In this document: piece by piece, positions 8,918 to 32,000 of the stretch
Layout of the letters: each line of letters begins with the position of its first letter
Position numbering within the stretch: the stretch's first letter is position 1
Assembly: GCF_900167395.1 (NCBI RefSeq)
Contig: NZ_FUWK01000029.1
Location: 7,192-39,191 of the forward strand
Length of the DNA: 32,000 bases
From: Nitrosomonas europaea
GTDB lineage: Bacteria; Pseudomonadota; Gammaproteobacteria; Burkholderiales; Nitrosomonadaceae
Reading direction: 5' to 3'
Notes under the pieces: generated by a model
Database searches by the model: none
What the model was told of the DNA's origin: nothing
What the model saw: the letters and a program-made list of their open reading frames with translations, nothing else
Made by a program: the position numbers and the translations under genes

Positions 8918-9325
8918 ATGGATGAGATCATCAAACAAAGTCCTGTTTTGTGGGTTCTAAGCGCCGTAGTTACTGGCTTCATCGCTGGCATCGCTGCGTA
9001 CATTGGTTTACTCAAGATAACGAATCAGGAGACTATTATAAAAGGGACTTATGAGCCAAAGAAGAACCTAGTGGGCCGTGTCTTGAAGAACGAAGTTCTC
9101 ATCGAATGCGGAAAGCTCATTGAGCTGGCAGGGCGCATAGATGGAGCGACGATGCCGGATAAAGTGGAGGCGTATATGACACAAACACTGATCTTTCTTG
9201 AAGGACTCGATCTTCCCAAAGTACAGCAATATCACCAGCTCAAAATGTCTTGGCCTGCTTATACGATCCAGCTATTGCTGGTGAATGACAAGCTGTCTTC
9301 GTCGCAGAAACTGGGGCGAGCGTAG
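8918..9325 (+). CDS. hypothetical protein with one N-terminal TM helix
   Basis: 135-aa ORF with GGAGG 8 nt upstream of the ATG. The TM segment is VLWVLSAVVTGFIAGIAAYIGLL. No family was recognised. Confidence 0.55.
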   Translation: MDEIIKQSPVLWVLSAVVTGFIAGIAAYIGLLKITNQETIIKGTYEPKKNLVGRVLKNEVLIECGKLIELAGRIDGATMPDKVEAYMTQTLIFLEGLDLPKVQQYHQLKMSWPAYTIQLLLVNDKLSSSQKLGRA

Positions 9326-9383
9326 GGTGTCCTCGAGGGGCTGAGATCAAGTTTTTCTGCCTCTGCAGGTGGTTAATGGAAAA

Positions 9384-9455
9384 GCCCAACAGGGCGCTCA
9401 AGCGGACCGCCAATCCACTGCGCGGCTTGTCGGCCCCTTAGCTTGAGCGTTATAC
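9384..9455 (+). other. attC-like recombination site
   Basis: Reading: GCCCAAC (R''-like) - AGGGC - GCTCAAGC ... GCTTGAGC - GTTATAC (R'-like). The 8-bp arms GCTCAAGC/GCTTGAGC are perfectly complementary. The site is 72 bp long and the next ORF starts 17 nt later. The R' box deviates from GTTRRRY at one position. Confidence 0.5.
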
Positions 9456-15290: not shown

Positions 15291-18158
15291 ATGCAGCTTG
15301 CCACAGACCTCCCTTCTTCCTCTCCCGTCCAGCAGAAAAATTTTCTGGAAGAGATGACCGATTTGCCGGCGACCCGGCAGAATTATTCCCAGTATAAGAT
15401 CATCCGCCGCAATGGTGCCGTGGTGGCATTTGAGCCGGGCAAGATTTCCATCGCGCTGACCAAGGCGTTCATTGCCGTAAGAGGCGGGCAGAGTGCTGCT
15501 TCTTCCAGCATGCGTGAGATCGTGGCGCAACTGACCGGAGAAGTCGTGCATGCCCTGACTCGCCGGCGGCCGGAAGGTGGTACGTTTCATATCGAGGATA
15601 TTCAGGATCAGGTCGAGCTGGCACTGATGCGCTCGGGTGACCATGATATCGCTCGTGCGTATGTGTTGTACCGTGAGGAGCGGGCGCGTGAACGGGCCAG
15701 GCAGCAATCAGCCCAGCCGGCTTCCGGTCAGGTGGCTGTGTTGCATGTCGTGGAAAACGGGCAAAAGATTCCGCTCGATCCGGCCCAGCTGATGGCCCGT
15801 ATCGAATCAGCCTGCCAAAATCTGGGGAATACGGTCGATGCCGCGCTGATCGTCAAATCGATGCTCAAGGATTTGTACGATGGTGTGCCTGCCGAGGAAG
15901 TCAGAAAATCTGCCATCCTGTCTGCCCGTGCGCTGATCGAGAAAGAGCCTGCCTACAGTTTTGTGACAGCACGGCTTTTGCTGGATAACATCCGTTATGA
16001 AGTCCTGGGTGAAGAAGTTGCCCATGAGGCCATGCAATCGCGCTATGCCGAATATTTCCCGGAGTTTGTCCGGAAAGGGATCGAGGCCGGGCTGCTGGAT
16101 GAACGTTTGGGACAGTTTGACCTGGCACGGTTGTCAGAAGCTCTGGCTGCCGATCGTGATCTGCAGTTTGGCTACCTTGGCCTGCAGACCTTGTACGACC
16201 GCTATTTTCTGCATGTTTCCGAACGGCGTATCGAACTGCCGCAAATATTCTTCATGCGTGTTGCCATGGGATTGGCGCTGAACGAAATCGATCGTGAAGC
16301 CCGCGCCATCGAGTTTTATCACCTGCTGTCCAAGTTCGATTTCATGAGCTCGACACCCACCCTGTTCAATTCGGGTACACGGCGCTCGCAATTGTCCTCA
16401 TGCTATCTGAGCACTGTGCCGGACAGTCTCGATGGCATTTATGAAGCCATCAAGGAAAACGCGCTGCTATCGAAGTTTGCGGGCGGACTGGGCAACGACT
16501 GGACGCCGGTCAGGGCAATGGGTGCGCGCATCAAGGGAACCAATGGCAAGTCGCAAGGGGTGGTGCCTTTTCTCAAAGTGGTATCGGATACAGCAGTGGC
16601 AGTCAATCAGGGCGGCAAGCGCAAGGGAGCGGTTTGTGCCTATCTGGAAACCTGGCATCTCGATATCGAGGAATTTCTGGAATTGCGTAAAAACACCGGG
16701 GATGACCGGAGGCGAACGCATGACATGAATACTGCCGTCTGGGTGCCGGATCTGTTCATGAAGCGTATGCAGGAAGATCAGGAATGGACGCTGTTTTCAC
16801 CTTCCGATACGCCGGATCTGCACGACAAATTCGGCAGAGCATTTGAAGAAGCCTATATCGCCTATGAAGAGCAGGCGGCACAAGGCAGGCTGACCCTGTT
16901 CAAGCGTATCCCGGCCCGGCAATTGTGGCGCAAGATGCTGACCATGCTGTTTGAAACCGGGCATCCGTGGATTACGTTCAAGGATCCCTGCAATATCCGT
17001 TCACCGCAGAATCATGTCGGCGTCGTGCACAGCTCCAATTTGTGTACTGAGATCACGCTGAATACCAGCGAAAAGGAAATTGCCGTATGCAATCTAGGGT
17101 CGGTCAACCTGCTGGCCCATATCGTCGATGGCAAACTGGATCAGGCCAGGCTCAAACAGACGGTTACGACAGCGATGCGTATGCTGGACAATGTGATCGA
17201 CATCAATTTCTACGCGGTGGCAAAAGCGCGCAATGCTAATTTCCGGCATCGCCCGGTCGGGCTGGGGATCATGGGTTTCCAGGATTGTCTGCATAAGCTG
17301 GGCATTTCCTATGCTTCCCCGGAAGCAGTCGAATTTGCTGACAGGTCGATGGAAGCAGTTGCATACCATACCTACTGGGCTTCCACTGAACTGGCTGAAG
17401 AGCGTGGCACCTATGCCACTTACCGGGGTAGTTTGTGGGATCGTGGCATTCTGCCGCAGGATACGCTGGAGTTGTTGCGTGAGGAGCGCGGCGGCCATGT
17501 GGAAATCGATACCTCATCCACGCAGGACTGGGATGCTCTGCGTGACCGGATCAGACAGTACGGCATGCGTAATTCCAACTGCCTGGCGATTGCACCGACT
17601 GCGACGATCTCCAACATCATTGGAGTCTCCGCCAGTATCGAACCCACTTATCAGAATCTGTATGTCAAATCCAATCTTTCCGGAGAGTTTACGGTCGTCA
17701 ACCAGTGGCTGGTAAATGATCTGAAAAAGCAGGACTTGTGGGATGAAGTCATGATCGCCGATCTCAAGCATTACGATGGAGCGGTCAGCAAGATTGACCG
17801 GGTGCCGGAGAATTTGCGCAACCTGTACGCTACGGCGTTCGAAGTTGATCCTCGATGGCTGGTCGAAGCAGCATCCAGAAGGCAGAAATGGATCGACCAG
17901 GCGCAATCGCTCAATCTTTACATGGCAGGTGCTTCCGGCAAAAAAATGGATGAGCTGTACCGGCTTGCCTGGTTGCGCGGACTCAAGACGACCTATTATC
18001 TGCGCGCGCTGGGGGCAACCACTGCCGAAAAATCGACGGTTCATACCGGTACCTTGAATGCAGTTCCCGCGCAGCACGAAGCGCATGCGGGCAATCTGGC
18101 TCATTCAGCCCCGCAGCAATGTGCAATCGACAATCCGGAATGTGAAGCATGCCAGTAA
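15291..18158 (+). CDS. nrdA: class Ia ribonucleotide reductase alpha subunit
   Basis: ORF 15108..18158. The start is chosen at the ATG at 15291, preceded by AGGAG; the upstream extension overlaps the promoter and NrdR box. It has an ATP-cone ([26 protein letters not shown]), the catalytic region ([20 protein letters not shown]) and a C-terminal ..CEACQ tail. Confidence 0.95.
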
Positions 18159-18198
18159 GTATCGAACAATCCACCACCAGAACCCAAGGAGCAACATC

Positions 18199-19347
18199 AT
18201 GCTGACTTTTGAAGATGAAGTATTTCAGCCGGGCAATATCCTGGCAGGCACGAGCGCACAAGCAGGGATGGCCAACAAAATGATTGCTGAGCGGCAGGTG
18301 CTGGACGAGGAAATACCGGCAGAGGATCATCGTCGGGTATCCGTGGAAGACAAGCGCATCATCAACTGCAAGGCGGATGTCAATCAGCTGGTGCCGTTCA
18401 AGTACAAATGGGCGTGGGAAAAATACTTATCTGCCTGTGCCAATCACTGGATGCCGCAGGAAATCAACATGACGCGGGATATCGCTCTCTGGAAAGATCC
18501 CAACGGGTTGACCGAGGATGAACGCCGTATCGTCAAACGCAACCTCGGCTTTTTCGTCACGGCCGATTCACTGGCAGCCAACAATATCGTGCTGGGGACC
18601 TATCGGCACATTACCAACCCTGAATGCCGCCAGTATTTGTTGCGACAGGCGTTCGAGGAAGCCATCCACACGCACGCCTATCAGTACATCGTCGAATCAA
18701 TCGGCCTGGATGAAGGTGAAATTTTTAATGCCTATCATGAAATCGGGTCGATACGTGACAAAGATGAGTTCCTGATTCCTTTTATCGATACACTCACCGA
18801 TCCTTCATTCCGGACAGGTACACTGGAAACCGACCAGCAACTGCTGAAAAGCCTGATCGTGTTTGCCTGCATCATGGAAGGGCTGTTTTTCTATGTCGGT
18901 TTTGTACAGATTCTGGCACTCGGCCGGCAGAACAAGATGACCGGGGCGGCCGAGCAATACCAGTACATCCTGCGTGATGAATCCATGCATTGCAATTTCG
19001 GCATCGATGTCATCAACCAGATAAAACTTGAAAACCCGCATCTGTGGACCCGGGAATTCCGCGAGGAAATCAGCGCCCTGATGCGCAAGGCAGTGGAACT
19101 GGAATACCGTTATGCGGAAGACACCATGCCGCGCGGCGTGCTCGGTTTGAACGCGCCGATGTTCAAGGAATATCTGCGTTTCATTATCAATCGTCGCAGC
19201 CATCAGATCGGCCTCGATCCATTGTTCCCCGAAGCGGGTAACCCTTTCCCATGGATGTCGGAAATGATCGATCTGAAGAAAGAAAAGAATTTCTTTGAAA
19301 CGCGTGTGATCGAGTATCAGACAGGGGGCGTATTAAGTTGGGATTAA
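18199..19347 (+). CDS. nrdB: class Ia ribonucleotide reductase beta subunit
   Basis: ORF 18058..19347. The start is chosen at the ATG at 18199, preceded by AAGGAG; the longer ORF overlaps the nrdA 3' end. It has the di-iron/tyrosyl motifs ([37 protein letters not shown]). Confidence 0.95.
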
Positions 19348-19402
19348 CGGTGTTAATCAATCGATTGCCGATCGATAAAATCATGTAGAATGACAACGGG
19401 CC

Positions 19403-19452
19403 GGCTGGTTCACTTTAAAATTAAAAAATACAGGTGACCAGCCTTTTTTATT
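19403..19452 (+). terminator. rho-independent terminator after nrdB
   Basis: GGCTGGTTCAC (19403-19413) pairs with GTGACCAGCC (19434-19443) with one bulge across a 20-nt A/T loop. TTTTTTATTTT follows. Confidence 0.6.
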
Positions 19453-19496
19453 TTCAGAAAATCAATTATGCGAGCGAACCGTTCATTTTATTCAGG

Positions 19497-20882
19497 ATGA
19501 AGACAAAATCGAATACCTCACTAGTATTGATTGCCGCAGTAGTATTGGCTTCTCTCTCTGTTACGGTGCAAGCCGGCAGAACTTTAGAAAAAAATATAAG
19601 TATCACTGTACTGGATACGAGACAGTATCAGGTACCACCACACAAGCAGCAGGATGATCTATGGATGCGCGTACGAGCCGGATTTTCCCTGGCGAACATT
19701 CAAAGCCAGGAAGTACGGCAGCACGAAAGCAATTTCAGTAAAAATCAGCGATTCATAGATCATATTGTTGGACGTAGTCAGCGTTATCTGTTTTACATCA
19801 TCGAAGAAGTGGAACGTCGGCGCATGCCGGCTGAGATTGCGCTGCTGCCGATCATCGAGAGCGAGTTTGATCCGGATGCTTACTCTCACAGGCATGCTGC
19901 GGGGTTGTGGCAGTTTGTTCCCTCGACGGCAAAAGCGTTCGGGCTGGAGCAGAACTGGTGGCATGACGAACGGCGCGATATCATCGCGGCTACCCAGGCT
20001 GCGCTGGATTATCTGCAGATGCTCTACAAAATGTTTGGAAACTGGAAGCTGGCACTGGCTGCTTACAACTGGGGACAGGGATCACTGAAGAAAGTGATCG
20101 ACGAAGGTCATGGAGGTAATAAATCTGTCAACTACCAGGAAATCGGGCTTCCGGCTGAAACCAGAAACTATATTTCCAAGCTGATCGCCATCAGAAATAT
20201 CATTGCCAATCCTCGCCGCTATGGCATCAAGCTGAAGCCCATTTCAAACCGGCCTTATTTCGAACAGATCACGATCACCCAGCAGATCGATGTACAACTG
20301 GCCGCTCGGCTTGCCGGAATTTCAGAAAGCGAATTCAATGCGTTGAATCCGGCCTATCACAGACCCCTCATCAAGGCCGAAGATTCTCCACGGACACTGT
20401 TGCTGCCCGTTACCAAAGTCAAAACTTTCGTGGACAACCTCGAAAATTATGACAAGTCACTGGTGTCGTGGCGAATTTACCAGATTGAGCAAACGGAAAC
20501 CTTGCGCGACTTATCCAGCCGGTATCGTATCCCGGTTGCCCGGCTGGCTGAGATCAATGGCATTTCTGAACGTGCTACTCTGAAAAAAGGCCAGATATTG
20601 CTGGTGCCACGTGACGGCAGCAGTGCAAGAGAAATGACCTATCTTGCACACTATCAGCTCAAACAACCGGCACGACCGGCTACGAGGCGCTCTCAATCAT
20701 CGGAAGAACGCATCGTTTATACCGTCAAAAAGGGTGATACGCTCCACGCTATCGCCAAACGCTACGGTATCGATATCAAAACGATCCGTTTATGGAACAA
20801 GGGAAGTGATCAGCTTTCCATCGGGCAAAAGCTTACACTCAAGCTGACATCACCCGCCTTCAGCAGCCCTTATTCTTCCTGA
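19497..20882 (+). CDS. mltD: MltD-like lytic transglycosylase with C-terminal LysM domains
   Basis: ORF 19434..20882. The start is set at the ATG at 19497 because the GTG at 19434 lies inside the nrdB terminator stem. It has a signal peptide (MKTKSNTSLVLIAAVVLASLSVTVQA, with no lipobox Cys) and an SLT domain (LLPIIESEFDPDAYSHRHAAGLWQFVPSTA ... AAYNWGQGSL). Two LysM-like repeats follow (YQIEQTETLRDLSSRYRIPVARLAEINGI and YTVKKGDTLHAIAKRYGIDIKTIRLWN). Confidence 0.85.
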   Translation: MKTKSNTSLVLIAAVVLASLSVTVQAGRTLEKNISITVLDTRQYQVPPHKQQDDLWMRVRAGFSLANIQSQEVRQHESNFSKNQRFIDHIVGRSQRYLFYIIEEVERRRMPAEIALLPIIESEFDPDAYSHRHAAGLWQFVPSTAKAFGLEQNWWHDERRDIIAATQAALDYLQMLYKMFGNWKLALAAYNWGQGSLKKVIDEGHGGNKSVNYQEIGLPAETRNYISKLIAIRNIIANPRRYGIKLKPISNRPYFEQITITQQIDVQLAARLAGISESEFNALNPAYHRPLIKAEDSPRTLLLPVTKVKTFVDNLENYDKSLVSWRIYQIEQTETLRDLSSRYRIPVARLAEINGISERATLKKGQILLVPRDGSSAREMTYLAHYQLKQPARPATRRSQSSEERIVYTVKKGDTLHAIAKRYGIDIKTIRLWNKGSDQLSIGQKLTLKLTSPAFSSPYSS

Positions 20883-23800
20883 ACGATCAGCAGCATCTGG
20901 CCGGAAAATACATAATCACCCTGTCTGCAGCTGATCTGCTTCACGATCCCGCTGACCGGTGCACTCAGGGTGATTTCCATTTTCATGGATTCGATGATGA
21001 TGACCGGATCTCCGGCATTGACCAGTTGTCTGGTTTCGATCAGCAGTTTCCATACAGTACCGGTCACATCTGAACTGATGGCGTATGCTCCGTCGGGTAA
21101 ATCAGGTGCATTTTGCATACCGGGTTTATCAAGCACGCCTTCACCCTCATCGCTGATACTGTTTTCTTCCTGTACGTTCCCGATCTTCCAGCGCTCGCGT
21201 TCAGCCTCAAAAGCCTTTTGCTGACGGGTTTTGAATGCTTGAATACTGTCTGCATGCTGATGCAGGAATGCATGATAGTTGCGCAGACTGAAAACGGTAT
21301 CTTCGGTATGAAGTGTAAAACGCCCGGTGATAAAGTCGTGGCGTAACTCAAGCAGCTCCTGTTCAGAAACAGGGTAAAACCTGATCTGATCAAAAAAGCG
21401 CAGCAGCCAGGGTTTACCGGCGGTAAAGTCCCGAGTCTGACGGTAACGATTCCACATCTGCACTGTTCTTCCGACAAACTGATATCCTCCGGGACCTTCC
21501 ATACCATAAATACAGAGATAGGCTCCTCCTATTCCGACTGCATTTTCGGGTGTCCAGGTGCGTGCCGGGTTGTATTTGGTGGTGACCAGCCGATGGCGCG
21601 GATCGATCGGCGTGGCCACCGGGGCGCCCAGGTAGACATCTCCCAGCCCCATGACCAGATAGCTGGCATCGAAAATGATACGTTTGACCTCATCGATACT
21701 GTCCAGTCCGTTGATACGCCGGATGAATTCGATGTTGCTCGGGCACCAGGGTGCATCCGGCCGGACTGACTGCATATATTTTTCGATGGCAAGTTTTGTG
21801 GCAGCGTCATCCCAGGAAAGGGGTAAATGCACGATACGCGAAGGCATTTCCATATCGTCGCTTGCCGGTAAATCCTTCTCGGCGGTAATGAGTTTATTCA
21901 GGAGATGGTCACGATCCAGAAGCCGCGAATCGAAATGTATCTGCAAAGAGCGAATGCCCGGTGTCATGTCGAGAATTCCGGGCAGATCGCCTTTTTCAAC
22001 ACAGTGCTGCAGCCAGGCCATCAGGGCATGTGCGCGAAAATGCAGTGCGATATCGAGTACCGCTTCGCCATACTCGATCAGCAGATATTTATCCCCGGAT
22101 TGTCGGTAAACCACTTGTACCTGCCCGTTATTTGCCGGAATCCGATGCAGTACAGGATCACTCGGCTCAACCAGGGAAGCAGGAATATCGGGTGGTACGC
22201 GAGTGAAGGAATCCAGCTGCTGGATCATCTTGTCCTGTTGCTTTTCCAGCTTCAGCGCCTGTTCCGCTGTGAGCGGGTGAAAACGCACGCTATCACCAGG
22301 TTTGAGCTGACCGGTTTTCCATAATTCCGCCTGTACGATCACAGCAGGACAGACAAATCCTCCCAGGCTGGGGCCATCCGGGCCAAGGATGATGGGCATA
22401 TCACCGGTAAAATCGATCGCACCGACCGCATAGGGATTGTCATGGATGTTGGAGGGGTGCAGGCCGGCTTCACCTCCGTCTTTGCGTGCCCATTGTGGTT
22501 TGGGGCCGATCAGGCGTATACCGGTACGGCTGGAATTGTGATGCACCTTCCAGTCGGTGGTAAAGAATTCATCGATGTCAGCCCCGGTAAAGAAATCCGG
22601 TGCACCATGCGGACCATACAGGACTCCGATTTCCCACCGGCTGGTGTAGTGGGGAATGTTTTCGGAGGGCAATATGCTTGGCTCAGTATCTTCTGCTGGC
22701 AGGATATGCAGCACATCCCCGGTGCACAGCGCCCGTCCGGCATGCCCGCCGAACTGCCCCAGTGTAAAAGTGGAGCGGCTGCCCAAATAATCCGGTACCT
22801 GAATCCCACCCTTGATGGCCAGGCAGGATCGGCTGCCAAACTGACGGATTTTACCGAATCGTAACAGCGAACCTGCTTTGATGAAGTGAGATCGCCACTG
22901 TTCCAGGGGGGCACCATCCAGCCAGACATCAATGGGTGCTCCACATACTGCAATCAGACTGTTGCAGTTGAATCTCAACGTTGGCCCGGCCAGCGTGATT
23001 TCCAATCCCGCCGAGTCATCGGGGTTTCCAACCAGATGATTGGCCAGACGAAAAGCCAGACTGTCCATCGGACCGGATGGAGGTACTCCTACGTTCCAAT
23101 AGCCTGTTCTGCCCGGGTAATCTTGCACTGTCGTCTGTACACCGGCGTTGAGTACATCCAGGGTATGCGGTTGGTAGTGAAACCCGGAAAGGAATTGGGT
23201 GCTGACCTGCCCGCTGCGGAATACCGTTCCGGATAATACCTGCCTGAGATAATCCAGATTGGTTTCAATGCCGTAGAGCGTGGTTTTGTCTAATGCGGCG
23301 ATCAAACGGTCGATGGCCTGATCACGATTGCTGGCGTGAACGATGATCTTAGCGAGCATTGGGTCATAGAAGGCCGATACTTCACAACCCGCGTCCACCC
23401 AGGTTTCAATCCGTGCAGTTTCCGGAAATTCGACAGCGCTCAGCAAACCACTGGCCGGCTGAAAATTCTTGGCTGGATTTTCCGCATACACACGAGCCTG
23501 TATGGAAGCTCCCTGCAGTTGAATGGTAAATGATTCCAGTGGCGGTAAAGCATCGGCACCCAGCAGCACCATCCATTCGACCAGATCAATGCCGGTCACC
23601 ATCTCGGTGACGCCATGTTCCACCTGCAGGCGGGTATTGACTTCCAGAAAATAAAACCGATCGACCGAGGGGTCGTAGACATATTCCACTGTGCCGGCAG
23701 ATCGGTATTGAACTGATTCTCCCAGGCGTATGGCTGTTTCCTGTAACGCGTTACGGGTTGCTGGCGACAGACCCGGTGCTGGTGTTTCCTCGATCACTTT

Positions 23801-24505
23801 CTGGTTGCGCCGCTGCATGGAACAATCACGTTCTTCTAATGCAATCACTTTTCCACGGCCGTCGCCGAAAATCTGTACTTCGATATGGCGAGCCTGGTCG
23901 ATGTATTTTTCCAGGAACAAGCCGGCATTACTGAAATTACTTTGTGCCAGGTTTTTGACAGACTCATAGGCATCAATCAGCTCTTGCCGGTTGCGGCACA
24001 AGCGCATACCGATCCCCCCCCCTCCTGCCGTACTTTTGAGCATGACTGGGTAACCGATCCGGTGTGCTTCCTCGCAGGCGGTTTCGAGGTGTTCCAATAA
24101 TCCGGTACCCGGCAGCATCGGCGCGTCGAGTTGCTGTGCGAGCGCACGGGCAGTATGTTTCAGACCGAAAGTGCGTATCTGTTCAGGAGTGGGGCCCAGA
24201 AAACAAATCCCTTCTGCGGCACATTGCTCGGCAAATGAAGCATTTTCACTGAGGAATCCGTACCCCGGGTGGATTGCCTGAGCACCGGTGCGGTGTGCAA
24301 CTTCCAGTATTTTATCGGCACGCAAATAACTTTCGCTGGCAAGTCCATCGCCGATACAAATACTGTCATCAGCATCCAGCACATGCCGTGATAGCGCGTC
24401 AGCTTTCGTAAAAACAGCCACACTCCCGATGCCCATCCGATGCAAAGTACGGATAACACGGCAGGCAATGGCGCCCCGATTGGCGATCAGAACTTTTGTA
24501 AACAT
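20870..24505 (-). CDS. uca: urea/guanidine carboxylase, full length (biotin carboxylase + carboxyltransferase + BCCP)
   Basis: 1211 aa. It has an N-terminal ATP-grasp biotin carboxylase (MFTKVLIANRGAIACRVIRT..., KSTAGGGGIGM, EVNTRLQVEHGVTE). AHS2/AHS1-like carboxyltransferase regions follow. The C-terminus has a biotinyl motif (IIIESMKMEI). A guanidine-I riboswitch lies in the 5' leader. Confidence 0.92.
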   Translation of the reverse strand: MFTKVLIANRGAIACRVIRTLHRMGIGSVAVFTKADALSRHVLDADDSICIGDGLASESYLRADKILEVAHRTGAQAIHPGYGFLSENASFAEQCAAEGICFLGPTPEQIRTFGLKHTARALAQQLDAPMLPGTGLLEHLETACEEAHRIGYPVMLKSTAGGGGIGMRLCRNRQELIDAYESVKNLAQSNFSNAGLFLEKYIDQARHIEVQIFGDGRGKVIALEERDCSMQRRNQKVIEETPAPGLSPATRNALQETAIRLGESVQYRSAGTVEYVYDPSVDRFYFLEVNTRLQVEHGVTEMVTGIDLVEWMVLLGADALPPLESFTIQLQGASIQARVYAENPAKNFQPASGLLSAVEFPETARIETWVDAGCEVSAFYDPMLAKIIVHASNRDQAIDRLIAALDKTTLYGIETNLDYLRQVLSGTVFRSGQVSTQFLSGFHYQPHTLDVLNAGVQTTVQDYPGRTGYWNVGVPPSGPMDSLAFRLANHLVGNPDDSAGLEITLAGPTLRFNCNSLIAVCGAPIDVWLDGAPLEQWRSHFIKAGSLLRFGKIRQFGSRSCLAIKGGIQVPDYLGSRSTFTLGQFGGHAGRALCTGDVLHILPAEDTEPSILPSENIPHYTSRWEIGVLYGPHGAPDFFTGADIDEFFTTDWKVHHNSSRTGIRLIGPKPQWARKDGGEAGLHPSNIHDNPYAVGAIDFTGDMPIILGPDGPSLGGFVCPAVIVQAELWKTGQLKPGDSVRFHPLTAEQALKLEKQQDKMIQQLDSFTRVPPDIPASLVEPSDPVLHRIPANNGQVQVVYRQSGDKYLLIEYGEAVLDIALHFRAHALMAWLQHCVEKGDLPGILDMTPGIRSLQIHFDSRLLDRDHLLNKLITAEKDLPASDDMEMPSRIVHLPLSWDDAATKLAIEKYMQSVRPDAPWCPSNIEFIRRINGLDSIDEVKRIIFDASYLVMGLGDVYLGAPVATPIDPRHRLVTTKYNPARTWTPENAVGIGGAYLCIYGMEGPGGYQFVGRTVQMWNRYRQTRDFTAGKPWLLRFFDQIRFYPVSEQELLELRHDFITGRFTLHTEDTVFSLRNYHAFLHQHADSIQAFKTRQQKAFEAERERWKIGNVQEENSISDEGEGVLDKPGMQNAPDLPDGAYAISSDVTGTVWKLLIETRQLVNAGDPVIIIESMKMEITLSAPVSGIVKQISCRQGDYVFSGQMLLIVQEE

Positions 24506-24761
24506 AAATTCCCCTTACTGTGCTACCTGATCAAGCAGGCCATATTGTGATACATGCTGACTGTGCCAGCGGAAACGAATACAGATTTTTTAAAGTCGAT
24601 GGAAAATACAGATCTTCGCTTCCCGTAGAGGGTGGGCCGTGGGCGGGGAATACAGGAAACGTGGTGTAAAGCCGGAGATAGAAGCAGGTAAGCAGATAGT
24701 ACATATAACGAATCTCCAGGAGTCAGGAAATGACAGAAATCAATAATGCATTGGCATTATG

Positions 24762-24862
24762 TAACCTCCCGGGCTTTTATCCCTCCGTGGAGCTTCGTAT
24801 GACGAAGCCTCAAGCTCTCGGACCAGTCACTTTCCCTGGGAAAGCCGGAACCCTAGCCTGAA
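24762..24862 (-). promoter_or_regulatory. guanidine-I (ykkC) riboswitch aptamer, minus strand
   Basis: The reverse complement reads CTAGGGTTCCGGCTTTCCCAGGGAAAGTGACTGGTCCGAGAGCTTGAGGCTTCGTCATACGAAGCTCCACGGAGGGATAAAAGCCCGGGAGG. It contains the ykkC signature blocks CUAGGGUUCCG, GGUCCGAGAG, ACGGAGGGA and AAAGCCCGGGAG. It lies about 257 nt upstream of the carboxylase ATG at 24505. Confidence 0.88.
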
Positions 24863-24940
24863 GTAATTTCAATCAGCCACCAGTACAGTCGATGCCGATG
24901 ATGTCGGTGCTGCTGGCCGTAATCAAAACATATGTGCCAT

Positions 24941-24970
24941 TTTATAGGCAGCTGATCTTTTCTGAAACAA
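24941..24970 (-). promoter_or_regulatory. putative promoter for the minus-strand riboswitch/carboxylase transcript
   Basis: On the minus strand: TTGTTT (plus-strand AAACAA, 24965-24970), an 18-nt spacer, then TATAAA (plus-strand TTTATA, 24941-24946). Confidence 0.35.
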
Positions 24971-24980
24971 TAATATTTTC

Positions 24981-25010
24981 TTGTCTTTCAAAAATTCCGG
25001 TGTATATAAT
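24981..25010 (+). promoter_or_regulatory. putative promoter for the plus-strand riboswitch/permease operon
   Basis: TTGTCT (24981-24986), an 18-nt spacer, then TATAAT (25005-25010). Its -35 lies back to back with the minus-strand -35, about 10 bp away. Confidence 0.35.
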
Positions 25011-25089
25011 TATCACCATGTTTTATCTGTGATGGTTGAAGCTAGGCCATGTCTCTAGGCAGATAAGGCATCAGAAGCACAGTCGTTTC

Positions 25090-25189
25090 ACGAAACTAGG
25101 GTTCCGGCTTTCCCAGGGAAAGTGACTGGTCCGAGAGTTTCGGGCCCTGCCAGCAGGGTTCCACGGAGGGATAAAAGCCCGGGAGGTTA
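25090..25189 (+). promoter_or_regulatory. guanidine-I (ykkC) riboswitch aptamer, plus strand
   Basis: CTAGGGTTCCGGCTTTCCCAGGGAAAGTGACTGGTCCGAGAGTTTCGGGCCCTGCCAGCAGGGTTCCACGGAGGGATAAAAGCCCGGGAGG. It carries the same signature blocks as the minus-strand copy. It lies about 267 nt upstream of the permease ATG at 25456. Confidence 0.88.
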
Positions 25190-25455
25190 TGTTCAATACA
25201 TTAACTACCGGGAGCCAGAGTGGAAAAACTATCGCGTGTGTGCGCTGCAGTTCAGAATCCAGATTTTCCTCATGTTTTTCCTTTTTCATCGATAGCCGAT
25301 TGCCATTTGCCTGTTGGCGTTCGGTTACATATCCATTTTTCCAGTAGCAGCACTTTCGAGCTGATATCTCTTGCTGTCAGGTATTGTTTTCCGGCAGCAG
25401 ATTCCATTGCCTCCTGTTGGCATATAGCGCCCTTAATTTTCAAGGAGGAACCAGT

Positions 25456-26973
25456 ATGCCGGTAGACGAAAAGAAAGGTCCTTTTTCTGCGATCAATAAC
25501 AGATCGGCTGGTGAAGCCGAAGCAGGGGGCGAGATCATTCACGAAACAGGCCAGCTTCGTCGCAGCATGAGCGTATGGAACTGTTTCACGCTGGGGTTCT
25601 CGGTCGTGTCACCGGTAGTAGGGTTATACGCTATTTTCGGAGTCCAGAATCTGGTGACGGGAGGGGGGTGGATTGCCGCACTCATCTTGAGTTTGTTCAT
25701 GCAACTCATGGTAGCAACCGTCTATGCCGAGCTTTCCTCACAATTTCCCATTGCAGGCGGGGCTTATAAATGGTCCCGGCATCTGATCGGGCCCAGAACA
25801 GGGCAGTATGCCGGGGCCATTTATGTCAGTTCGACGATCGCCATGCTGACTACGACTGCGTATACGGGTGGAATGTGGCTTTCCGCGGTGATTGTGGGAG
25901 GAGATATACAGGGAGCCTCGGCAGTCCTGTGGGGAGTTGTATTCCTGTTGATTTGCACCACAGTCAACATAGTAAATCAGAAAGTTTACAAGGTAATCAA
26001 TCTGCTGGGTGTCAGTGCTGAAGTCTTGGGTTCGATATGTGTGGCACTGGTCCTGTTTTTCTTCTTTCGAATCTATCCGGTTTCGGAGTTATTTCAACAT
26101 CTGGGCACGGGACTTGCACCCACCAGCCTGACTGCCTTCCTGGCAGCATTGGCCATCGCAGGCTGGGCATTCATCGGTTTTGATTCCTGCTCGACTATTG
26201 CTGAGGAAGCACACAATCCCGAAAGAATGATTCCACGTGCAATCTTCTTGTCTCTGCTGGCAGTAGGCAGTGTAGTGCTCTTCAATTCCTCTGCCCTAAC
26301 GTTGTCGATCAGTCACGATACGCTGGTCGAGGCCAGCGCTACATCCGACCCTATCTCGCCGATCATTACCAGCACGATCGGAGCCTGGGCCGCAAAACCG
26401 TTTCTGGTGATTGTCATGACAGCCTTTCTTTCCTGCGGATCCTCAGTGGTCAATTACGTTTCACGCATCGTTTTTTCGATGGCGCGTGAAGGTAATTTGC
26501 CCGCTTTCTTTTCACAGGTAACAAGAAAAACGCAACTGCCGCGCAATGCAATCGGCGGGACCGTGCTCATGGCAGGTCTCGGGTTGCTTTTCGGACTGAA
26601 TGACGGGGCCGTTGCAACCATTATCGCTTTCGGTACCGGTGGCCTGTACGCCATGTTTTCCATGACCACGGGCGTTGGTCTATACGCACGCCTGATGGGG
26701 CGGTGGAATCCTGCATTGGGCGCGTTCAGGCTGGGAAGATGGGGGTTGGTGATCAACACCGTGGCTTTTGTCTGGGCATTATTCGAACTGATCAATATCG
26801 GCTGGCCGCGGGAATATGTGGCAGCCCCCGGAGCGCCATGGTGGCAGCTCTGGGCGGTACCTCTGGTGCTGGGCACCATACTGGCTCTGACGACGCTGCA
26901 CGTGCAGATGGGCCACAAGCGTCGGATGAAGAGGGCTCTGAGCGGTACTGTCACGGACGATCTGCAGAAGTAG
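25456..26973 (+). CDS. APC-superfamily amino acid/polyamine-type permease (candidate guanidine or urea importer)
   Basis: ORF 25384..26973. The start is set at the ATG at 25456, preceded by AAGGAGG. There are about 12 hydrophobic segments and an APC-like TM1 (FTLGFSVVSPVVGLYAIFG). It is the first gene after the riboswitch. Confidence 0.85.
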   Translation: MPVDEKKGPFSAINNRSAGEAEAGGEIIHETGQLRRSMSVWNCFTLGFSVVSPVVGLYAIFGVQNLVTGGGWIAALILSLFMQLMVATVYAELSSQFPIAGGAYKWSRHLIGPRTGQYAGAIYVSSTIAMLTTTAYTGGMWLSAVIVGGDIQGASAVLWGVVFLLICTTVNIVNQKVYKVINLLGVSAEVLGSICVALVLFFFFRIYPVSELFQHLGTGLAPTSLTAFLAALAIAGWAFIGFDSCSTIAEEAHNPERMIPRAIFLSLLAVGSVVLFNSSALTLSISHDTLVEASATSDPISPIITSTIGAWAAKPFLVIVMTAFLSCGSSVVNYVSRIVFSMAREGNLPAFFSQVTRKTQLPRNAIGGTVLMAGLGLLFGLNDGAVATIIAFGTGGLYAMFSMTTGVGLYARLMGRWNPALGAFRLGRWGLVINTVAFVWALFELINIGWPREYVAAPGAPWWQLWAVPLVLGTILALTTLHVQMGHKRRMKRALSGTVTDDLQK

Positions 26974-27050
26974 ATTGGCAGAAACTCTGTTTACAGCGGT
27001 TGGCTTGTACGGTTATCAACTGAAGTCCAATGATGATGAGGAGGTAAAAC

Positions 27051-27779
27051 ATGAATCAGGTAACGACCTATCTTTGGGAAACACATCTCCCCGGTGGCAG
27101 CCACTGGTCTGGTGTCGTGCGCCGGGGAACGACCTTGCGCCTGACAGATGTGTCAGGCGGGGCCAACGCCGCAGTGTTATTTTACAACCTGGAAGAGAAG
27201 CTGGAGCGTTACAACATGGCTGATACGCTCAAGACCCAACATACTTTCTGTTTAACCAAGGGGCACGCCTGCCATTCCGATATGGGACGGATTTTCTGCT
27301 GTATCACCGAAGATACTGCCGGTTGGCACGATACCGTATGTGGCCTGAGCGATGCTGAGCTGATACAGCAGAAATACGGTACGGGCCGGTATCAGGAGCT
27401 TCGTAATGATATGTACCGTAACGGGCTCGACGGGATGCTGGTCGAGTTGGGGAAATGGGGCCTGGGCAGACGTGACGTGGTTTCCAACATCAATTTCTTC
27501 AGCAAAGTGACGGCCAATTCTGTCGGGGAGCTGCAGTTTCATGTCAGTCACAGCAAAGCGGGTGATCACGTGGATCTGGCGTTTGCAATGGATACACTGG
27601 TGGTGCTGTCCGCTGCACCACATCCGCTCGATCCGGCAGCAACCTATCGTCCCGGTGCAGTTAACCTGGCAGTGTTTCCGTCGACACCTGCAGTAACAGG
27701 AGCCTGTGCACATATCGCGGAGAATGCACGTGGTTTGGAAAATACCCGACGTCTTTATGCTTATGGAGGTGTTAAATGA
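27051..27779 (+). CDS. DUF1989 protein, urea-carboxylase-associated family 2 (carboxyguanidine deiminase subunit type)
   Basis: 242 aa with GAGGAGG upstream. It has [53 protein letters not shown], characteristic of the family-2 member of the DUF1989 pair. Confidence 0.85.
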
Positions 27780-28435
27780 GCGCACAAAACCTGGTTGAAA
27801 GTACACTGAATCCTGATCATGCAGTCATAAACGAGATCTGTGACGCAGGCGAACCTTGGGTCAAGGAAATAAAGAAGGGACAGATATTTCGTATCGTCGA
27901 TCTCGAGGGTAATCAGGCGGTGGATACGCTGTTTTACAACGCACATGATGCAATGGAACGTTACAGTGCCACCGATACGGTACGTCGGCAGCACCGTCTA
28001 TATCTGACGACCGGCAGCAAACTGTATTCCAATTTCGGCAATGTCATGCTCGTCATCACGGCGGATACCTGCGGGCGGCATGATACGGTGGGCGGCGCTT
28101 GTGCAGCAGAAAGCAATACTACGCGCTATGCCCTCGATAAATATCCGATGCACAGTTGCCGGGACAGCTTTCTATATGCCCTGGCACATGACCCGGTGTG
28201 TGAGCGGCTCGGCATGAGCAAGCGAGATGTTCCAGCCAACATCAATTTCTTCATGAATGTCCCGGTAACAGAAGCAGGCAAGCTGGAATTTGCAGATGGG
28301 GTATCAGCCCCGGGCAAATATGTGGAAATGCGGGCTGAGATGGATGTGGTGGTACTGATTTCGAATTGCCCGCAGCTGAATAATCCGTGCAATGCCTATA
28401 ACCCTACGCCTGTTCGCTTACTGGTCTGGAATTGA
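27776..28435 (+). CDS. DUF1989 protein, urea-carboxylase-associated family 1 (carboxyguanidine deiminase subunit type)
   Basis: 219 aa. A 4-nt ATGA overlap with the upstream gene indicates translational coupling. It has [39 protein letters not shown] and [16 protein letters not shown], characteristic of the family-1 member. Confidence 0.85.
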
Positions 28436-28498
28436 TCACCCGTATATCGAACACAGGTATTTCTGAATTTGAACGTAACGCTGGACATGGAGATAACG

Positions 28499-30829
28499 AT
28501 GTCTGAAAAAACGTTGGATACGAACAAGATAGCTGCGCCCACCATCGATGTGCTCGTTCCGGGAATACAAACGACTATCCAGGATTATCCGGGAAGACGG
28601 GGTTACTGGAATATCGGCGTACCACCCTCGGGACCGATGGACAATCTGGCGTTCAGACTGGCCAATCGTCTGGCAGGTAATGAAGAAGGGCAGGCTGCGA
28701 TCGAGATCACTTTTGCCGGGCCAACCTTGCGCATCAACTGTGACACTGTCATCGCGGTGACAGGCGCGCCAATCGAAGTAAATCTGAACGGGAAACCACT
28801 GGCTCAGTGGAAATCGCACGAGGTTGCAGCAGGCGCACTACTTGCGTTCGGTGATGTACTGGGTCAGGGTAGCCGGGTTTATCTGGCAATTCAGGGTGGT
28901 ATTCAGGTACCAGACTACCTTGGCAGCAAGGCTACGTTCATGCTGGGCCAATTTGGCGGACATGAAGGACGCATACTGCAGGCAGGTGACGTGCTGAATG
29001 TCGTGGCAGGTAAGCATGATGGTTATACACCGCGCGAATTACCGCAGGTATCCATTCCGCACTATACCCATCACTGGGAAATCGCTGTATTGTACGGGCC
29101 GCATGGTGCGCCGGACTTTTTTACGGAAGAGGGGGTTGCCAATTTCTTTGCTGCCGATTGGACGGTGCATCATAATTCCGACCGTACCGGGGTGCGTTTG
29201 ATTGGCCCGAAACCCAAATGGGCGCGTACCGATGGCGGCGAAGCTGGATTGCATCCTTCTAACGTTCACGATGTTGCCTATTCCATCGGCGCGGTGGATT
29301 TCACCGGGGATCTGCCGGTGATACTCGGTCCGGATGGTCCCAGTCTGGGGGGCTTTGTCTGCCTGGTGACCCTTGTCCATGCGGAATTGTGGAAAATGGG
29401 ACAGCTGCGCCCGGGTGACCGTATCACTTTCCGCCGGATATCAGCTGGCGAAGCTGCAACACTGGAAGCAGTTCAAGATGCGCTCATCAGTGACTTGCGT
29501 TTGCCAGAGGCAGCATCGGTATCGACCAGCGCGAAAGTGGCAGCAACTACTGAAAGCCCGATTTTGCACACTATTCCTGAGAGTAGCGGGCAAGTGCAGG
29601 TGGTTTACCGGCAGGGTGGAGACAGGAATCTGCTGGTGGAATACGGGCCGATGATGCTCGATTTCAACCTGCGTTTCCGTGTCCATGTTTTGATGGAATG
29701 GTTGCAGCAGGCTGTAGAAAGTGGTGATCTGCCGGGAATTATAGATTTGACTCCCGGCATTCGCTCACTGCATATCCGTTTCGACGCAAAATTATTGCCA
29801 CGTAAACGGTTGCTGGATACGCTGATCACTGCAGAAAAACAGTTGCCTGCCATCGAAAATGTGGAGGTGCCGACACGTATCGTTCATCTGCCGCTATCCT
29901 GGAACGATTCGTCCGTCCAGCTGGCGATGAAGAAATACATGCAATCGGTGCGCAAGGATGCGCCCTGGAATCCGGATAACATCGAGTTTATCCGCCGTAT
30001 CAACGGACTGGACAGCATCGATGAGGTCAGACGTATCGTTTTCGATGCCAGTTATATGGTTATGGGGCTGGGGGATGTCTATCTGGGGGCGCCACTCGGC
30101 ACCCCTGTCGATCCCAGACATCGTCTGGTCACCACCAAATACAACCCGGCGCGCACCTGGACACCGGAAAATGCGGTGGGTATCGGCGGCGCTTATATGT
30201 GCGTGTATGGTATGGAAAGCCCCGGGGGTTATCAGTTAGTCGGGCGTACTGTACAGATGTGGAACACGCATGTTCAGACAAAAGATTTCAGGGAAGGCAA
30301 ACCCTGGCTCCTGCGTTTCTTTGACCAGGTAAGATTCTATCCCGTGACTGAAGCTGAACTGGCCGAGATGCGCAAAGATTTTCCGAGCGGAAAATTCACG
30401 TTGCGTATCGAGGAAGATCGTTTCAGTCTGAAACAGTACAACGATTTTCTGAAGGAGAATGCTGCCTCCATTGACACATTCAGAACGAAGCAGAAGGCCG
30501 CTTACATCGCCGAACGCGAACGCTGGAAAGCAGAAGGTCAGGAAAATTACACCACCAGTGAAATTCTGGAAGATGGTTCTGCTCCGGCTGATATTACTAT
30601 CTCGGCAGGAGCGCATGCTATACACACGCATGTAACCGGCATTGTATGGAAATTGTTGGTAAGTGAAGGACAGCGCGTGAATGCGGGCGATGATCTGGCC
30701 GTGTTGGAGTCAATGAAAATGGAATTCACGGTCAACGCGCCCATTAGTGGAGTGATACAGCGTGTATTGAGTAAAGCGGGCAGCAAAGTTACTGCCCGGC
30801 AAGTTCTTTTCGTGATCGAGGGGGGGTGA
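28499..30829 (+). CDS. carboxylase paralog with carboxyltransferase (AHS2/AHS1-like) and BCCP domains but no biotin-carboxylase domain
   Basis: ORF 28469..30829. The ATG at 28499 is preferred because GGAGA sits 5 nt upstream. It aligns from residue about 458 of the 1211-aa carboxylase onward (65 of 93 identical in the first aligned stretch, hand count). A biotinylation motif is present (VLESMKMEF). The 63 nt between the upstream stop and the start hold no ATP-grasp remnant. Confidence 0.85.
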
Positions 30830-30965
30830 AATCATTACTACCCGTGATTATGAGAATCAGCTGGGTACTCTGGAAAAAGTCCATAATGCCGGTGTCAATG
30901 TATGCTGCGGGGTATCGCCAGAGTGGGGGAATCCCGGCGGACTCGCGCTGGCTTAGTGGAACCAG
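30828..30965 (+). pseudogene. bioB: internal fragment of biotin synthase gene (bioB relic)
   Basis: My translation from 30828 gives [28 protein letters not shown]. After a 1-nt slip in a G run at 30909-30912 it continues [15 protein letters not shown]. This matches the BioB segment [43 protein letters not shown] (E. coli, from memory). Only about 45 codons are present, with no start and no radical-SAM CxxxCxxC region. Confidence 0.65.
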
Positions 30966-30967
30966 TT

Positions 30968-31681
30968 TTAATAAAAACTCAATATTGCCTTTGTTCCTTT
31001 GCCGGCAACCGATTCGAAATTAAGTTTCCAGCCAAAGTGGGTACAGATACGTATGATCAGATCAATGCCAATTCCTCCTGATATGTATTGCCCAGACTTA
31101 GCCATTTGGGTATAGATCCTGCTTATCTCCACTGGGGACATACCGTACCCTGGATCATCAATCGTAATTGTTCCAGGGTGCTCTGAATAAATACGGATAA
31201 CACCACGGTCACAGTTCTCGATTGCATTGCGCACCAGGTTACCAATTGCGACACGAACGATATGAAGTGGTGCAACGACTGGTATTGGAGATTCGATTTC
31301 CACAGCTAGAAGCAGGTCTTTTCCCCGACAAAGATATTCGTGATCCGCCACAATGGCCGGTATTTCTGCCCGGACGTCAATGTTTTCGTTATTGTTGATG
31401 AGCGTATCCGGAGCACGTGCAAGCGCGAGAAGAATTTCCACCAGATCTTCCATCTGACTGATGATGCGCCTGGACCGAAGCAGATGAGGCTTAATGGCTG
31501 ACGTGGTATCGGGGTGATCCAGTACTACTTCGGTCACTCCGGACATGGCTGCAATAGGTGTGCGCAACTCATGACTGGCTGTGTTGATGAAATTACGTTC
31601 ACGCTCGACATATTCCTGGATTCGATCGGTAAAACGGTTAATGGCGTCTGCGATAATATAGGTTTCATAAGCTGTAGTAGT
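30968..31681 (-). pseudogene. sensor histidine kinase lacking its N-terminal sensor/TM region
   Basis: ORF 30968..31567 plus in-frame upstream codons to 31681 gives ..ADAINRFTDRIQEYVERERNFINTASHELRTPIAAMSG (H-box), NLVRNAIEN (N-box), DDPGYGM (G1) and GGIGIDL (G2). The open frame ends at a stop at 31682-31684, only about 37 codons upstream of the H-box histidine. An IS transposase gene begins about 100 nt further on. Confidence 0.7.
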
Positions 31682-31684
31682 TCA

Positions 31685-32000
31685 GATTTGATCTGACAGC
31701 AGGTCTTGCCAAGAGGTGGGATTACCCGGTTTGATAGAGGTGCGAATCTTTATCAACCAAACGCGAAAGCGTAAAGGAGTAATCCCATGAGCAGTGTTCA
31801 TCATAAAATCATTAAACACAAGATTGGCTTGCTTAATCTGGCAGCTGAGCTTGGCAATGTATCCCGTGCCTGTAAGGTGATGGGTTTTTCTCGCGATACT
31901 TTCTATCGCTATCAGGCAGCTGTGGAAACAGGAGGTGTTGAAGCTCTGATAGATGCAAACCGACGTAAGCCCAATATCAAGAACCGTGTAGAAGAAGCGA
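31685..32000 (+). mobile_element. left end of an insertion sequence (continues beyond the window)
   Basis: It abuts the truncated kinase and contains a transposase 5' end. The exact inverted-repeat boundary was not determined. Confidence 0.5.
31787..32000 (+). CDS. IS transposase, N-terminal HTH part (partial; IS481-like by recollection)
   Basis: AAGGAG sits 7 nt upstream of the ATG at 31787. My translation is MSSVHHKIIKHKIGLLNLAAELGNVSRACKVMGFSRDTFYRYQAAVETGGVEALIDANRRKPNIKNRVEEA. This resembles the N-terminus of HTH + rve-type transposases. The frame stays open to the window edge, which is why it is missing from the ORF track. Confidence 0.6.
   Translation, partial: MSSVHHKIIKHKIGLLNLAAELGNVSRACKVMGFSRDTFYRYQAAVETGGVEALIDANRRKPNIKNRVEEA

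Follow-up and report, generated by a model that had tools for sequence, protein, structure and literature searches.

Guanidine-I riboswitches (ykkC subtype 1; Nelson et al. 2017, as cited in PMC11410670 and PMC12186494) are portrayed in the relevant passages of these two sources by the helices P1, P1a/P1b, P2 and P3 and a set of conserved blocks, by their association with 'urea' carboxylase, DUF1989/CgdAB and transporter genes, and by an expected ON polarity. Two such elements lie head to head in a stretch of Nitrosomonas europaea DNA of 32,000 nucleotides (nt) (contig NZ_FUWK01000029.1, positions 7,192 to 39,191; referred to as the window, whose numbering is used throughout unless a related locus is named), one facing a full-length guanidine/urea carboxylase gene and the other facing a permease operon. 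They share the helices, the blocks, the gene association and the expected polarity with the class. In contrast to the class as portrayed in these sources, no intrinsic terminator is found in either leader, the aptamers occur as two head-to-head copies, and the hairpin that competes with the aptamer carries or precedes the ribosome-binding site (RBS) of a leader open reading frame (ORF) and not that of the regulated gene. This points to two ON switches which gate the translation of a leader ORF, with the effect being relayed to the main gene, a reading that folding models and sequence comparison make moderately probable.

The closest mechanistic match is the ppe2 leader of Mycobacterium tuberculosis, in which a B12 riboswitch gates an upstream ORF (uORF) whose translation PPE2 requires, chiefly through termination-reinitiation (Kipkorir et al. 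2024, PMC11260477). The two systems would share a riboswitch-gated leader ORF, and in both the stop codon of this ORF overlaps or lies near the start codon of the main gene. The ppe2 system differs in being an OFF switch, in belonging to another ligand class and another phylum, and in having been shown experimentally, whereas the mechanism in Nitrosomonas is inferred from sequence. With regard to the genes under control, Raoultella, Erwinia and Klebsiella as treated in a section of PMC12186494 likewise have two riboswitch units, one for the importer with CgdAB and one for the carboxylase. There, a guanidine-I and a guanidine-II riboswitch in the same orientation are combined with an ABC importer and an allophanate hydrolase, while the locus described here has two divergent guanidine-I paralogs, an APC permease and an extra carboxylase paralog without a biotin carboxylase domain. 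Among the ammonia oxidisers, Nitrosospira multiformis and similar species (Fig. 1c of PMC11410670) share the aptamer, the permease-cgdA-cgdB order, the leader ORF and a long leader (265 nt in N. multiformis). Ammonia oxidisers with a single switch have the full carboxylase and an allophanate hydrolase behind one riboswitch in a shared operon; by contrast, the full carboxylase of the N. europaea clade lies upstream, is divergently oriented and has its own copy of the aptamer. Among the papers listed by a full-text search for both subjects, no title or opening of an abstract links a guanidine riboswitch to a uORF.

The preliminary description of the window, which was made from the letters of the sequence, had reported two oppositely oriented elements with all ykkC signature blocks and had proposed to search them on both strands with the Rfam Guanidine-I model RF00442 (gathering score 63). 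Such a cmscan search returned two full-length matches, both covering model positions 1-107 of 107: the left aptamer at 24764-24867 on the minus strand (97.2 bits, E 9e-17) and the right aptamer at 25085-25187 on the plus strand (95.5 bits, E 2.1e-16). In the cmscan alignment both copies fit every upper-case consensus position, and the core blocks CUAGGGUUCCG, GGUCCGAGAG and ACGGAGGGAUAAAAGCCCGGGAG are present in each. A looser Rfam scan of 24400-25600 gave the same two RF00442 matches and no further credible Rfam family, guanidine-II included. Guanidine genes are found 3' of each aptamer on the same strand, the carboxylase after a leader of 258 nt on the minus strand and the permease-cgdAB operon after a leader of 268 nt on the plus strand. 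The link of the class to 'urea carboxylase' genes, which the preliminary description took as established, is matched by downstream genes that fit TIGR02712, TIGR03425, TIGR03424 and the APC permeases. The assignment of both elements as guanidine-I aptamers of ykkC subtype 1, each facing guanidine-pathway genes, is supported by the model matches and by this gene context.

The two copies resemble each other in a patchy manner. A repeat finder delimits inverted arms at 24807-24856 and 25096-25145 (50 nt, 94%) and at 24762-24791 and 25160-25189 (30 nt, 100%). The 42-nt block CTAGGG...GAGAG is the same in both copies, as had been claimed, and the identical 3' end, previously put at 29 nt, comprises the final 30 nt. 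The hairpin between these parts was said to differ in sequence while still pairing; only 8 of 21 aligned columns of P2 are indeed the same, and P2 is paired in both copies. P1, which had escaped the earlier reading, also differs with compensation, being CGAAAC/GUUUCG in the right and UCAGGC/GCUUGA in the left aptamer. Covariation was assessed on 50 distinct ammonia-oxidiser aptamers from 48 related loci which had been found via the permease. Over the 28 pairs of the Rfam-type structure, 96.9% of the cells are paired, and both-sided, compensatory changes are seen in 14 of the 28 pairs, located in P1, P1b and P2. None of 500 shuffles matched the observed pairing and covariation, and controls in which the structure was slid along the sequences gave 31-62%. 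P3 and P1a are invariant among the 50 aptamers and therefore uninformative on covariation.

The part of the aptamer that would connect it to gene expression is P3. On the right side, a P3-competing hairpin is predicted by folding at 25178-25212 on the plus strand, with the 3' strand of P3 and the aptamer tail forming its 5' strand. CCGGGAG pairs here with CUnCCGG, and the 3' strand of the hairpin ends in the GGG of the Shine-Dalgarno (SD) sequence of the leader ORF. Folding predicts this competing hairpin for each of the 44 distinct permease-side leaders, with a median z of -3.4 and every z below -1. Variation in the partners of its lower stem is confined to C or U opposite G, and its upper stems differ among clades with pairing retained in per-sequence folds. 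When RNAalifold was applied to the platform alignment, it returned no more than 8 pairs, none of them with a double change, as the 5' strand of the hairpin is invariant and the MAFFT alignment suffers from register shifts; per-sequence folds and z-scores were used instead. On the left side, the equivalent is a long-range stem at 24716-24772 on the minus strand, in which CCGGGAG (24772-24766) and CUCCUGG (24722-24716) form the two strands, with an inner hairpin between them.

In the canonical arrangement, a hairpin overlapping P3 would be an intrinsic terminator that guanidine relieves, and the leader ORFs would be bystanders. A terminator scan found no intrinsic terminator in either leader of the window: the hairpin that overlaps the 3' strand of P3 is present but has no U tract after it, being followed by AGCCAGAGUGG on the plus strand and AGAUUCGUUAUA on the minus strand. 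An intrinsic terminator belongs to the usual expression platform and does not define the aptamer family itself. The canonical arrangement is favoured by relatives from Nitrosospira and N. communis, where AAUUUAA, AGUUUUAA or UAUUUGA comes after the hairpin. It would however leave a conserved SD with its start codon, an open frame and a fixed stop position unexplained, and a terminator as the basis of the switch is considered improbable for these leaders.

The SD sequences of the leader ORFs are placed such that the competing pairings reach them. In the right leader, GGGAG at 25210-25214 (plus strand) is located 5 nt 5' of the GTG at 25220, and in the left leader, GGAG at 24717-24714 (minus strand) precedes the ATG at 24704, the start codon generally being found 5-9 nt past the SD. 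The right SD and start codon are kept in 10 of 10 genomes of the N. europaea clade. The accessibility of these sites was modelled by equilibrium folds. Without constraints, the right leader keeps P1 to P2, replaces P3 by the competing hairpin and pairs the start region GUGGA with UCCAC of the aptamer. The unpaired probabilities of the five SD bases change from 0, 0, 0, 0.97 and 0.98 in this fold to 0.52, 0.90, 0.62, 0.94 and 0.35 when the aptamer pairs are enforced, and those of the start codon rise from about 0.01 to 0.15-0.44. For the left start codon, the corresponding values are 0.13-0.19 and 0.41-0.67. These models are suggestive of an opening of the RBS on aptamer formation in the right leader.

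A conserved ATG 3 nt after GGGAG was considered as an alternative start and rejected; the ORFs that begin there have between 1 and 81 codons and are not conserved. This ATG belongs to the upper stem of the competing hairpin and is therefore not regarded as a start. A separate observation concerns a metagenome contig (L001 7436-7439) that is otherwise 100% identical to N. europaea in this region and has a 42-nt deletion corresponding to 25169-25210 of the window. The 3' half of P3 and the right competing hairpin are lost in this contig and the leader-ORF SD is kept; its left carboxylase is rearranged as well, with the segment equivalent to 23235-23277 being replaced. The variant could be a natural constitutive form or an assembly artefact.

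The right leader ORF (25220-25465, plus strand) has 81 codons from its GTG start to the stop codon TAG at 25463-25465, which coincides with nucleotides 8-10 of the permease ORF in ATGCCGGTAG. The left leader ORF (24531-24704, minus strand) starts with ATG, has 57 codons and ends with TGA at 24533-24531, 25 nt 5' of the carboxylase ATG. Each of the 46 permease-side leaders of ammonia oxidisers contains an SD, a start codon and a leader ORF, and in most ammonia oxidisers the ORF starts 55-67 nt past the aptamer. In the comammox bacterium Nitrospira inopinata, the permease itself begins 58 nt past the aptamer, within that range. The stop codon falls on positions +8 to +10 of the permease in 21 of the 46 leaders, despite ORF lengths ranging from 47 to 123 codons. 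Codon 3 of the permease varies between Val (GTA), Ile (ATA) and Met (ATG), with the out-of-frame stop being retained in every case. When all three frames are read from the same leader-ORF start, the frame of the leader ORF stays open to 30 nt or less from the main ATG in 35 of these 46 leaders, as opposed to 4 and 5 for the two other frames. On the carboxylase side, the motif CUGGAGAUUnGUUAUAUG is kept in four of the five relatives that have a left copy, the fifth (L011) carrying a variant, and the left leader ORF comprises 47-60 codons in three relatives.

Two other roles for the leader ORF were considered and rejected. It is not an N-terminal extension of the permease, as it is never in the permease frame, and the encoded peptide shows no mark of selection, since substitutions are unbiased by codon position (0.478, 0.462 and 0.478). 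By this measure the peptide itself appears not to be under selection, and the conserved trait is apparently the reading through the leader. The similarity of the N-termini (MHFSS... / MEKLS...) is explained equally well at the RNA level. In Nitrosospira and N. communis loci (for example L031 9780-9810 and L046 9700-9740), the first codons of the leader ORF are complementary to its own SD (AAAGGAGAC). These codons, CAC UUC UCU UCC, with the N-termini MHFSS or MYSPS, make an SD/anti-SD hairpin with the start codon in its loop possible, and such a hairpin may explain the conserved N-terminus of the leader ORF at the RNA level.

The proposed mechanism begins with two transcripts that would run outward from back-to-back promoters. 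In the absence of guanidine, CCGGGAG of the P3 3' strand would pair with CUnCCGG or CUCCUGG and thereby bury part of the leader-ORF SD; on the right side the start codon would be buried too by the pairing of GUGGA with UCCAC of the aptamer. When guanidine is bound, P3 would form, the competing hairpin would be excluded and the RBS of the leader ORF would be freed. Ribosomes would then traverse the roughly 250-nt leader to stop on nucleotides 8-10 of the permease on the right and 25 nt before the carboxylase ATG on the left. Expression could be passed on to the main gene by termination-reinitiation, by an opening of the main RBS or by protection of the leader from Rho. As there is one switch per pathway half, guanidine would turn on both halves together. 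Guanidine binding, the ON polarity, translation of the leader ORF and the coupling step are all postulates of this model.

Several observations weigh against such a relay. Parts of PMC12186494 and PMC11410670 describe guanidine-I riboswitches as usually being transcriptional ON switches. Relatives from Nitrosospira and N. communis have the SD 20-25 nt past the hairpin, which is followed by the short U-rich run; the switch may act on transcription in these bacteria, with the leader ORF lying only downstream of it. The z-scores of the hairpins in the window are modest, about -1.8 on the right and -1.5 to -1.8 on the left, and those of the left stem in the relatives extend from -3.6 to +0.8, so that its conservation is weaker than that of the right hairpin. 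In the 'bound' model the left SD still takes part in weak local pairing, and hairpins at the SDs of the two main genes are no better than those of shuffles (z +0.1 and +0.65). Two N. eutropha strains have a left leader ORF of only 17-22 codons. The missing codon-position bias means that selection on the peptide cannot vouch for its translation. In dinucleotide shuffles, the openness of the ORF at the single locus has p = 0.036 on the right and p = 0.13 on the left, with a median of 0.12 for all loci, and is not significant by itself; the single-locus test is too weak, and the frame control across lineages was used in its place. A further point concerns Rho, as the right leader is not clearly richer in C than in G (0.235 vs 0.213), which makes a rut-site argument weak.

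Rho also figures in an explanation of its own, in which Rho attenuation or a long-range refolding is set directly by the state of the aptamer and translation of the leader ORF is dispensable. Riboswitches are known to control Rho termination in other systems, and the leaders are long, U-rich and weakly structured, with more C than G on the left (0.26 vs 0.18). C about equals G in the right leader, and neither Rho attenuation nor refolding predicts an SD and start codon that are conserved at a constant spacing from the aptamer, a frame that is kept open through many changes in length, or a stop on permease nucleotides 8-10 that is preserved while the encoded residue changes. This explanation appears rather unlikely on that account, though less so than the terminator. 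It can coexist with the gating of a leader ORF, as a step that leader-ORF translation counters.

The twin arrangement can be placed in an evolutionary context by comparing gene maps. The usual operon of ammonia oxidisers consists of the riboswitch, the permease, cgdA, cgdB and the full carboxylase. In the clade of N. europaea and N. eutropha and in a few members of Nitrosospira and Nitrosovibrio, the paralog without a biotin carboxylase domain follows cgdB. The full carboxylase lies upstream in divergent orientation with its own aptamer in six genomes, it lies downstream on the same strand in Nitrosospira sp. NpAV, and in HPC101 the second aptamer is found on a separate contig. No riboswitch was found before the permease homolog of a member of the Nitrospiraceae (L050).

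Compared segment by segment, P1 and P2 group by side instead of by genome and are orthologous across genomes. The left P2 agrees with the P2 of single-copy relatives in 18-19 of 21 columns, the right P2 being the derived type, and the right P1 (CGAAAC/GUUUCG) agrees with the P1 of the single-copy relatives. P1b behaves in the opposite way, with identities of 17/17, 16/16, 14/14 and 15/16 columns within genomes and of only 12-15 out of 17 between genomes on the same side; L016 forms an exception, with 10/17. As P1b is the same within a genome and differs between genomes, gene conversion between the inverted copies is indicated. The aptamers are old paralogs with side-specific P1 and P2 whose 5' halves have most likely been homogenised within each genome by gene conversion. 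The preliminary description had seen in the identical ends and the paired but divergent hairpin a conserved RNA structure rather than a plain DNA duplication. The compensation in P1 and P2 agrees with this view, but structural constraint alone does not account for the 42-nt identity, which contains the variable P1b.

The pair might also be a plain DNA inverted repeat, for instance the site of a promoter-segment inversion, or one of the copies might be decaying. There is an inverted repeat of 42-50 base pairs (bp) with a 239-bp spacer, and short-read contigs break inside it (L005 and L008 begin in the aptamer). Against this stands the fact that both copies score far over the gathering threshold at full model length and that P1 and P2 differ between the copies yet are paired in each and orthologous across five genomes. 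N. europaea, N. eutropha and related genomes have retained the pair together with both leaders, and the orientation is the same in complete N. europaea sequences and in the five fetched relatives that carry the pair; an inversion within the identical block would be expected to mismatch the P1 strands of both copies. Both decay of one copy and a plain repeat are very improbable in the light of these findings.

Individual relatives show changes within the aptamers. A metagenome-assembled genome of N. eutropha (L011 9103-9357, minus strand) has an insertion of about 146 nt inside P1b of the left aptamer, between CTAGGGTTCCG and GGTCCGAGAG. In N. eutropha Nm57 (L014 9633-9738, plus strand, and 9314-9422, minus strand), the conserved GGUCCGAGAG block is altered in both copies, to GGUCCAAGGG and GGUCCGAGGG. 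The form GGUCCAAGAG is frequent in the N. communis clade, and the G-to-A change in the block is therefore probably tolerated; the Nm57 locus also carries an additional A-to-G change there.

The two putative promoters face away from each other between the aptamers. The right promoter-like site (24981-25010, plus strand) consists of a -35 box TTGTCT at 24981-24986, an 18-nt spacer and a -10 box TATAAT at 25005-25010 and scores 10 of 12 in a consensus scan. An alignment shows that the block TTCTTGTnTTTCAAAAA...TGTATATAAT is kept in six genomes. On the left, the alignment of six genomes provides a candidate at 24943-24972 on the minus strand, with the -35 box TTGTTT at 24972-24967 and the -10 box TATAAA at 24948-24943; the promoter scan favours another pair, TTCAGA/TAAAAT, and the assignment of TTGTTT/TATAAA is weak and uncertain. 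The -35 boxes had been placed only about 10 bp apart. With the best left candidate the distance is 8 bp, although this candidate is weak. Since insertions between the boxes reach about 80 bp in relatives, the close apposition is not a conserved feature. Between the promoters, the block AGCTGATCTTT (24950-24965) is kept in six genomes and could be part of the minus-strand promoter or a protein-binding site. The predicted promoters imply about 65-75 nt 5' of P1 in each transcript (24868-24936 and 25017-25084), and the 5' segment of the plus-strand transcript contains an imperfect inverted repeat (25018-25029 / 25060-25071).

As for the genes themselves, the window is identical to AL954747.1 (Nitrosomonas europaea ATCC 19718) from 17776 to 32000. 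The left aptamer faces, as had been stated, the carboxylase of 1211 amino acids (aa) at 20870-24505 on the minus strand, which contains the Pfam biotin carboxylase, carboxyltransferase and biotinyl carrier domains and reaches 2021.8 bits with TIGR02712 (cut-off 1303.85). It is entered as guanidine carboxylase CAD86332.1 in the supplement of PMC11410670. The right operon starts with an APC-family permease of 505 aa, a predicted guanidine importer, at 25456-26973 on the plus strand (ATG 25456, SD AAGGAGG, Pfam AA_permease_2). It matches TIGR03428 under the cut-off and is entered as CAD86331.1 in the same supplement. It is followed on the plus strand by the genes for two DUF1989 proteins (PF09347) at 27051-27779 and 27776-28435, which exceed the cut-offs of TIGR03425 and TIGR03424 (CgdA and CgdB). 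They are annotated as the carboxyguanidine deiminase subunits cgdA and cgdB, names used in PMC11410670.

The last gene of the operon (28469-30829, plus strand) codes for a carboxylase paralog of 786 aa, whose start is placed at about 28487 or 28499 in public gene calls. The order permease-DUF1989-DUF1989-carboxylase paralog given in the preliminary description is correct, with the amendment that this 'carboxylase' has no biotin carboxylase domain. Its Pfam domains are limited to CT_A_B, CT_C_D and Biotin_lipoyl. Residues 448-1209 of the full enzyme are its counterpart, at 62% identity, and its match to TIGR02712 spans positions 433-1201 with 1135 bits, under the cut-off of 1304. The gap to cgdB is only 33 nt, with the paralog beginning at the carboxyltransferase domain, and the biotin attachment motif ESMKME is kept. 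Orthologs with 75-90% identity occur in 16 other fetched loci, and this level of identity between species argues for a maintained paralog and not a pseudogene. To judge from its domains, it would need a biotin carboxylase in trans. Both paralogs are filed as guanidine carboxylases in Supplementary Table 1 of PMC11410670, a study which required the Asp residues by which guanidine enzymes are told apart from urea enzymes. In Nitrosospira sp. NpAV (L020 9155-11502), a biotin-synthase-like gene (Radical SAM and BATS domains) and a methyltransferase gene are found between the paralog and the full carboxylase, which suggests that biotin supply is co-expressed with the pathway there.

A gene and Pfam survey found no allophanate hydrolase gene beside either operon within the window, and the N. 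europaea entry in Supplementary Table 1 of PMC11410670 gives NA for allophanate hydrolase and no urease. In a Nitrosospira locus (L031), an allophanate hydrolase gene comes after the carboxylase at 16516-18588. Further downstream in the window, a histidine-kinase fragment of 199 aa (30968-31567, minus strand) is a remnant, and transposase genes come next in the reference genome. This shortened ORF is adjoined by a full-length match to psRNA2 (RF02349) at 31606-31785 on the minus strand (141.5 bits). Where the window has the kinase remnant, another contig (L005 5861-7860) has a complete kinase of 421 aa, accompanied by a response regulator, a urea transporter and a TonB-dependent receptor.

The preliminary description regarded the mirrored twins that control two carboxylase paralogs as the unusual part of the locus. 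Both elements are, however, listed in Supplementary Table 2 of Palatinszky et al. 2024 (PMC11410670) as AL954747 2634101-2634203 (minus strand) and 2634421-2634524 (plus strand). According to this table, at least eight other Nitrosomonas genomes have the same divergent pair, the two copies being separated by about 213-441 nt, and the remaining ammonia oxidisers mostly have one copy. The pair is therefore already on record in at least nine Nitrosomonas genomes, and what is unusual is the expression platform. The main-text passages of PMC11410670 and of the 2025 review PMC12186494 that deal with these riboswitches make no mention of the divergent arrangement. The aptamers add nothing new in themselves, since the class, the link to 'urea' carboxylases and both instances were public, and the twin arrangement represents a variant specific to this lineage, in which the copies have partly evolved in concert. 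The most interesting part is the leader-ORF platform, which is a computational inference.

Taken as a whole, the findings suggest a wider scenario that is held more tentatively than the gating itself and whose chances are put at slightly below even. Guanidine-I riboswitches of the Nitrosomonadaceae would gate a non-conserved leader ORF of 30-123 codons and relay its translation via a stop codon that is kept at permease nucleotides 8-10. This switch would have been duplicated head to head in the N. europaea clade, with the 5' halves being exchanged by gene conversion. The full carboxylase and its paralog would be co-induced, and the latter may depend on the biotin carboxylase of the full enzyme in trans.

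Such a relay would have practical consequences for the study of these operons. Annotation pipelines that link a riboswitch to whichever gene comes next within 1 kb would overlook what it directly controls, and the leader ORF would have to be part of any guanidine-sensing reporter built for these bacteria. Smaller questions concern the concerted evolution of paralogous aptamers and the role of the paralog without a biotin carboxylase domain. If the model is true, a uORF relay would be a platform that has not been described for any guanidine riboswitch, and guanidine-I would join the few riboswitches that act through uORF translation. It would also account for the unannotated leaders of 200-430 nt in these operons, and the mechanism would span the guanidine operons of most betaproteobacterial ammonia oxidisers, which are central to nitrification.

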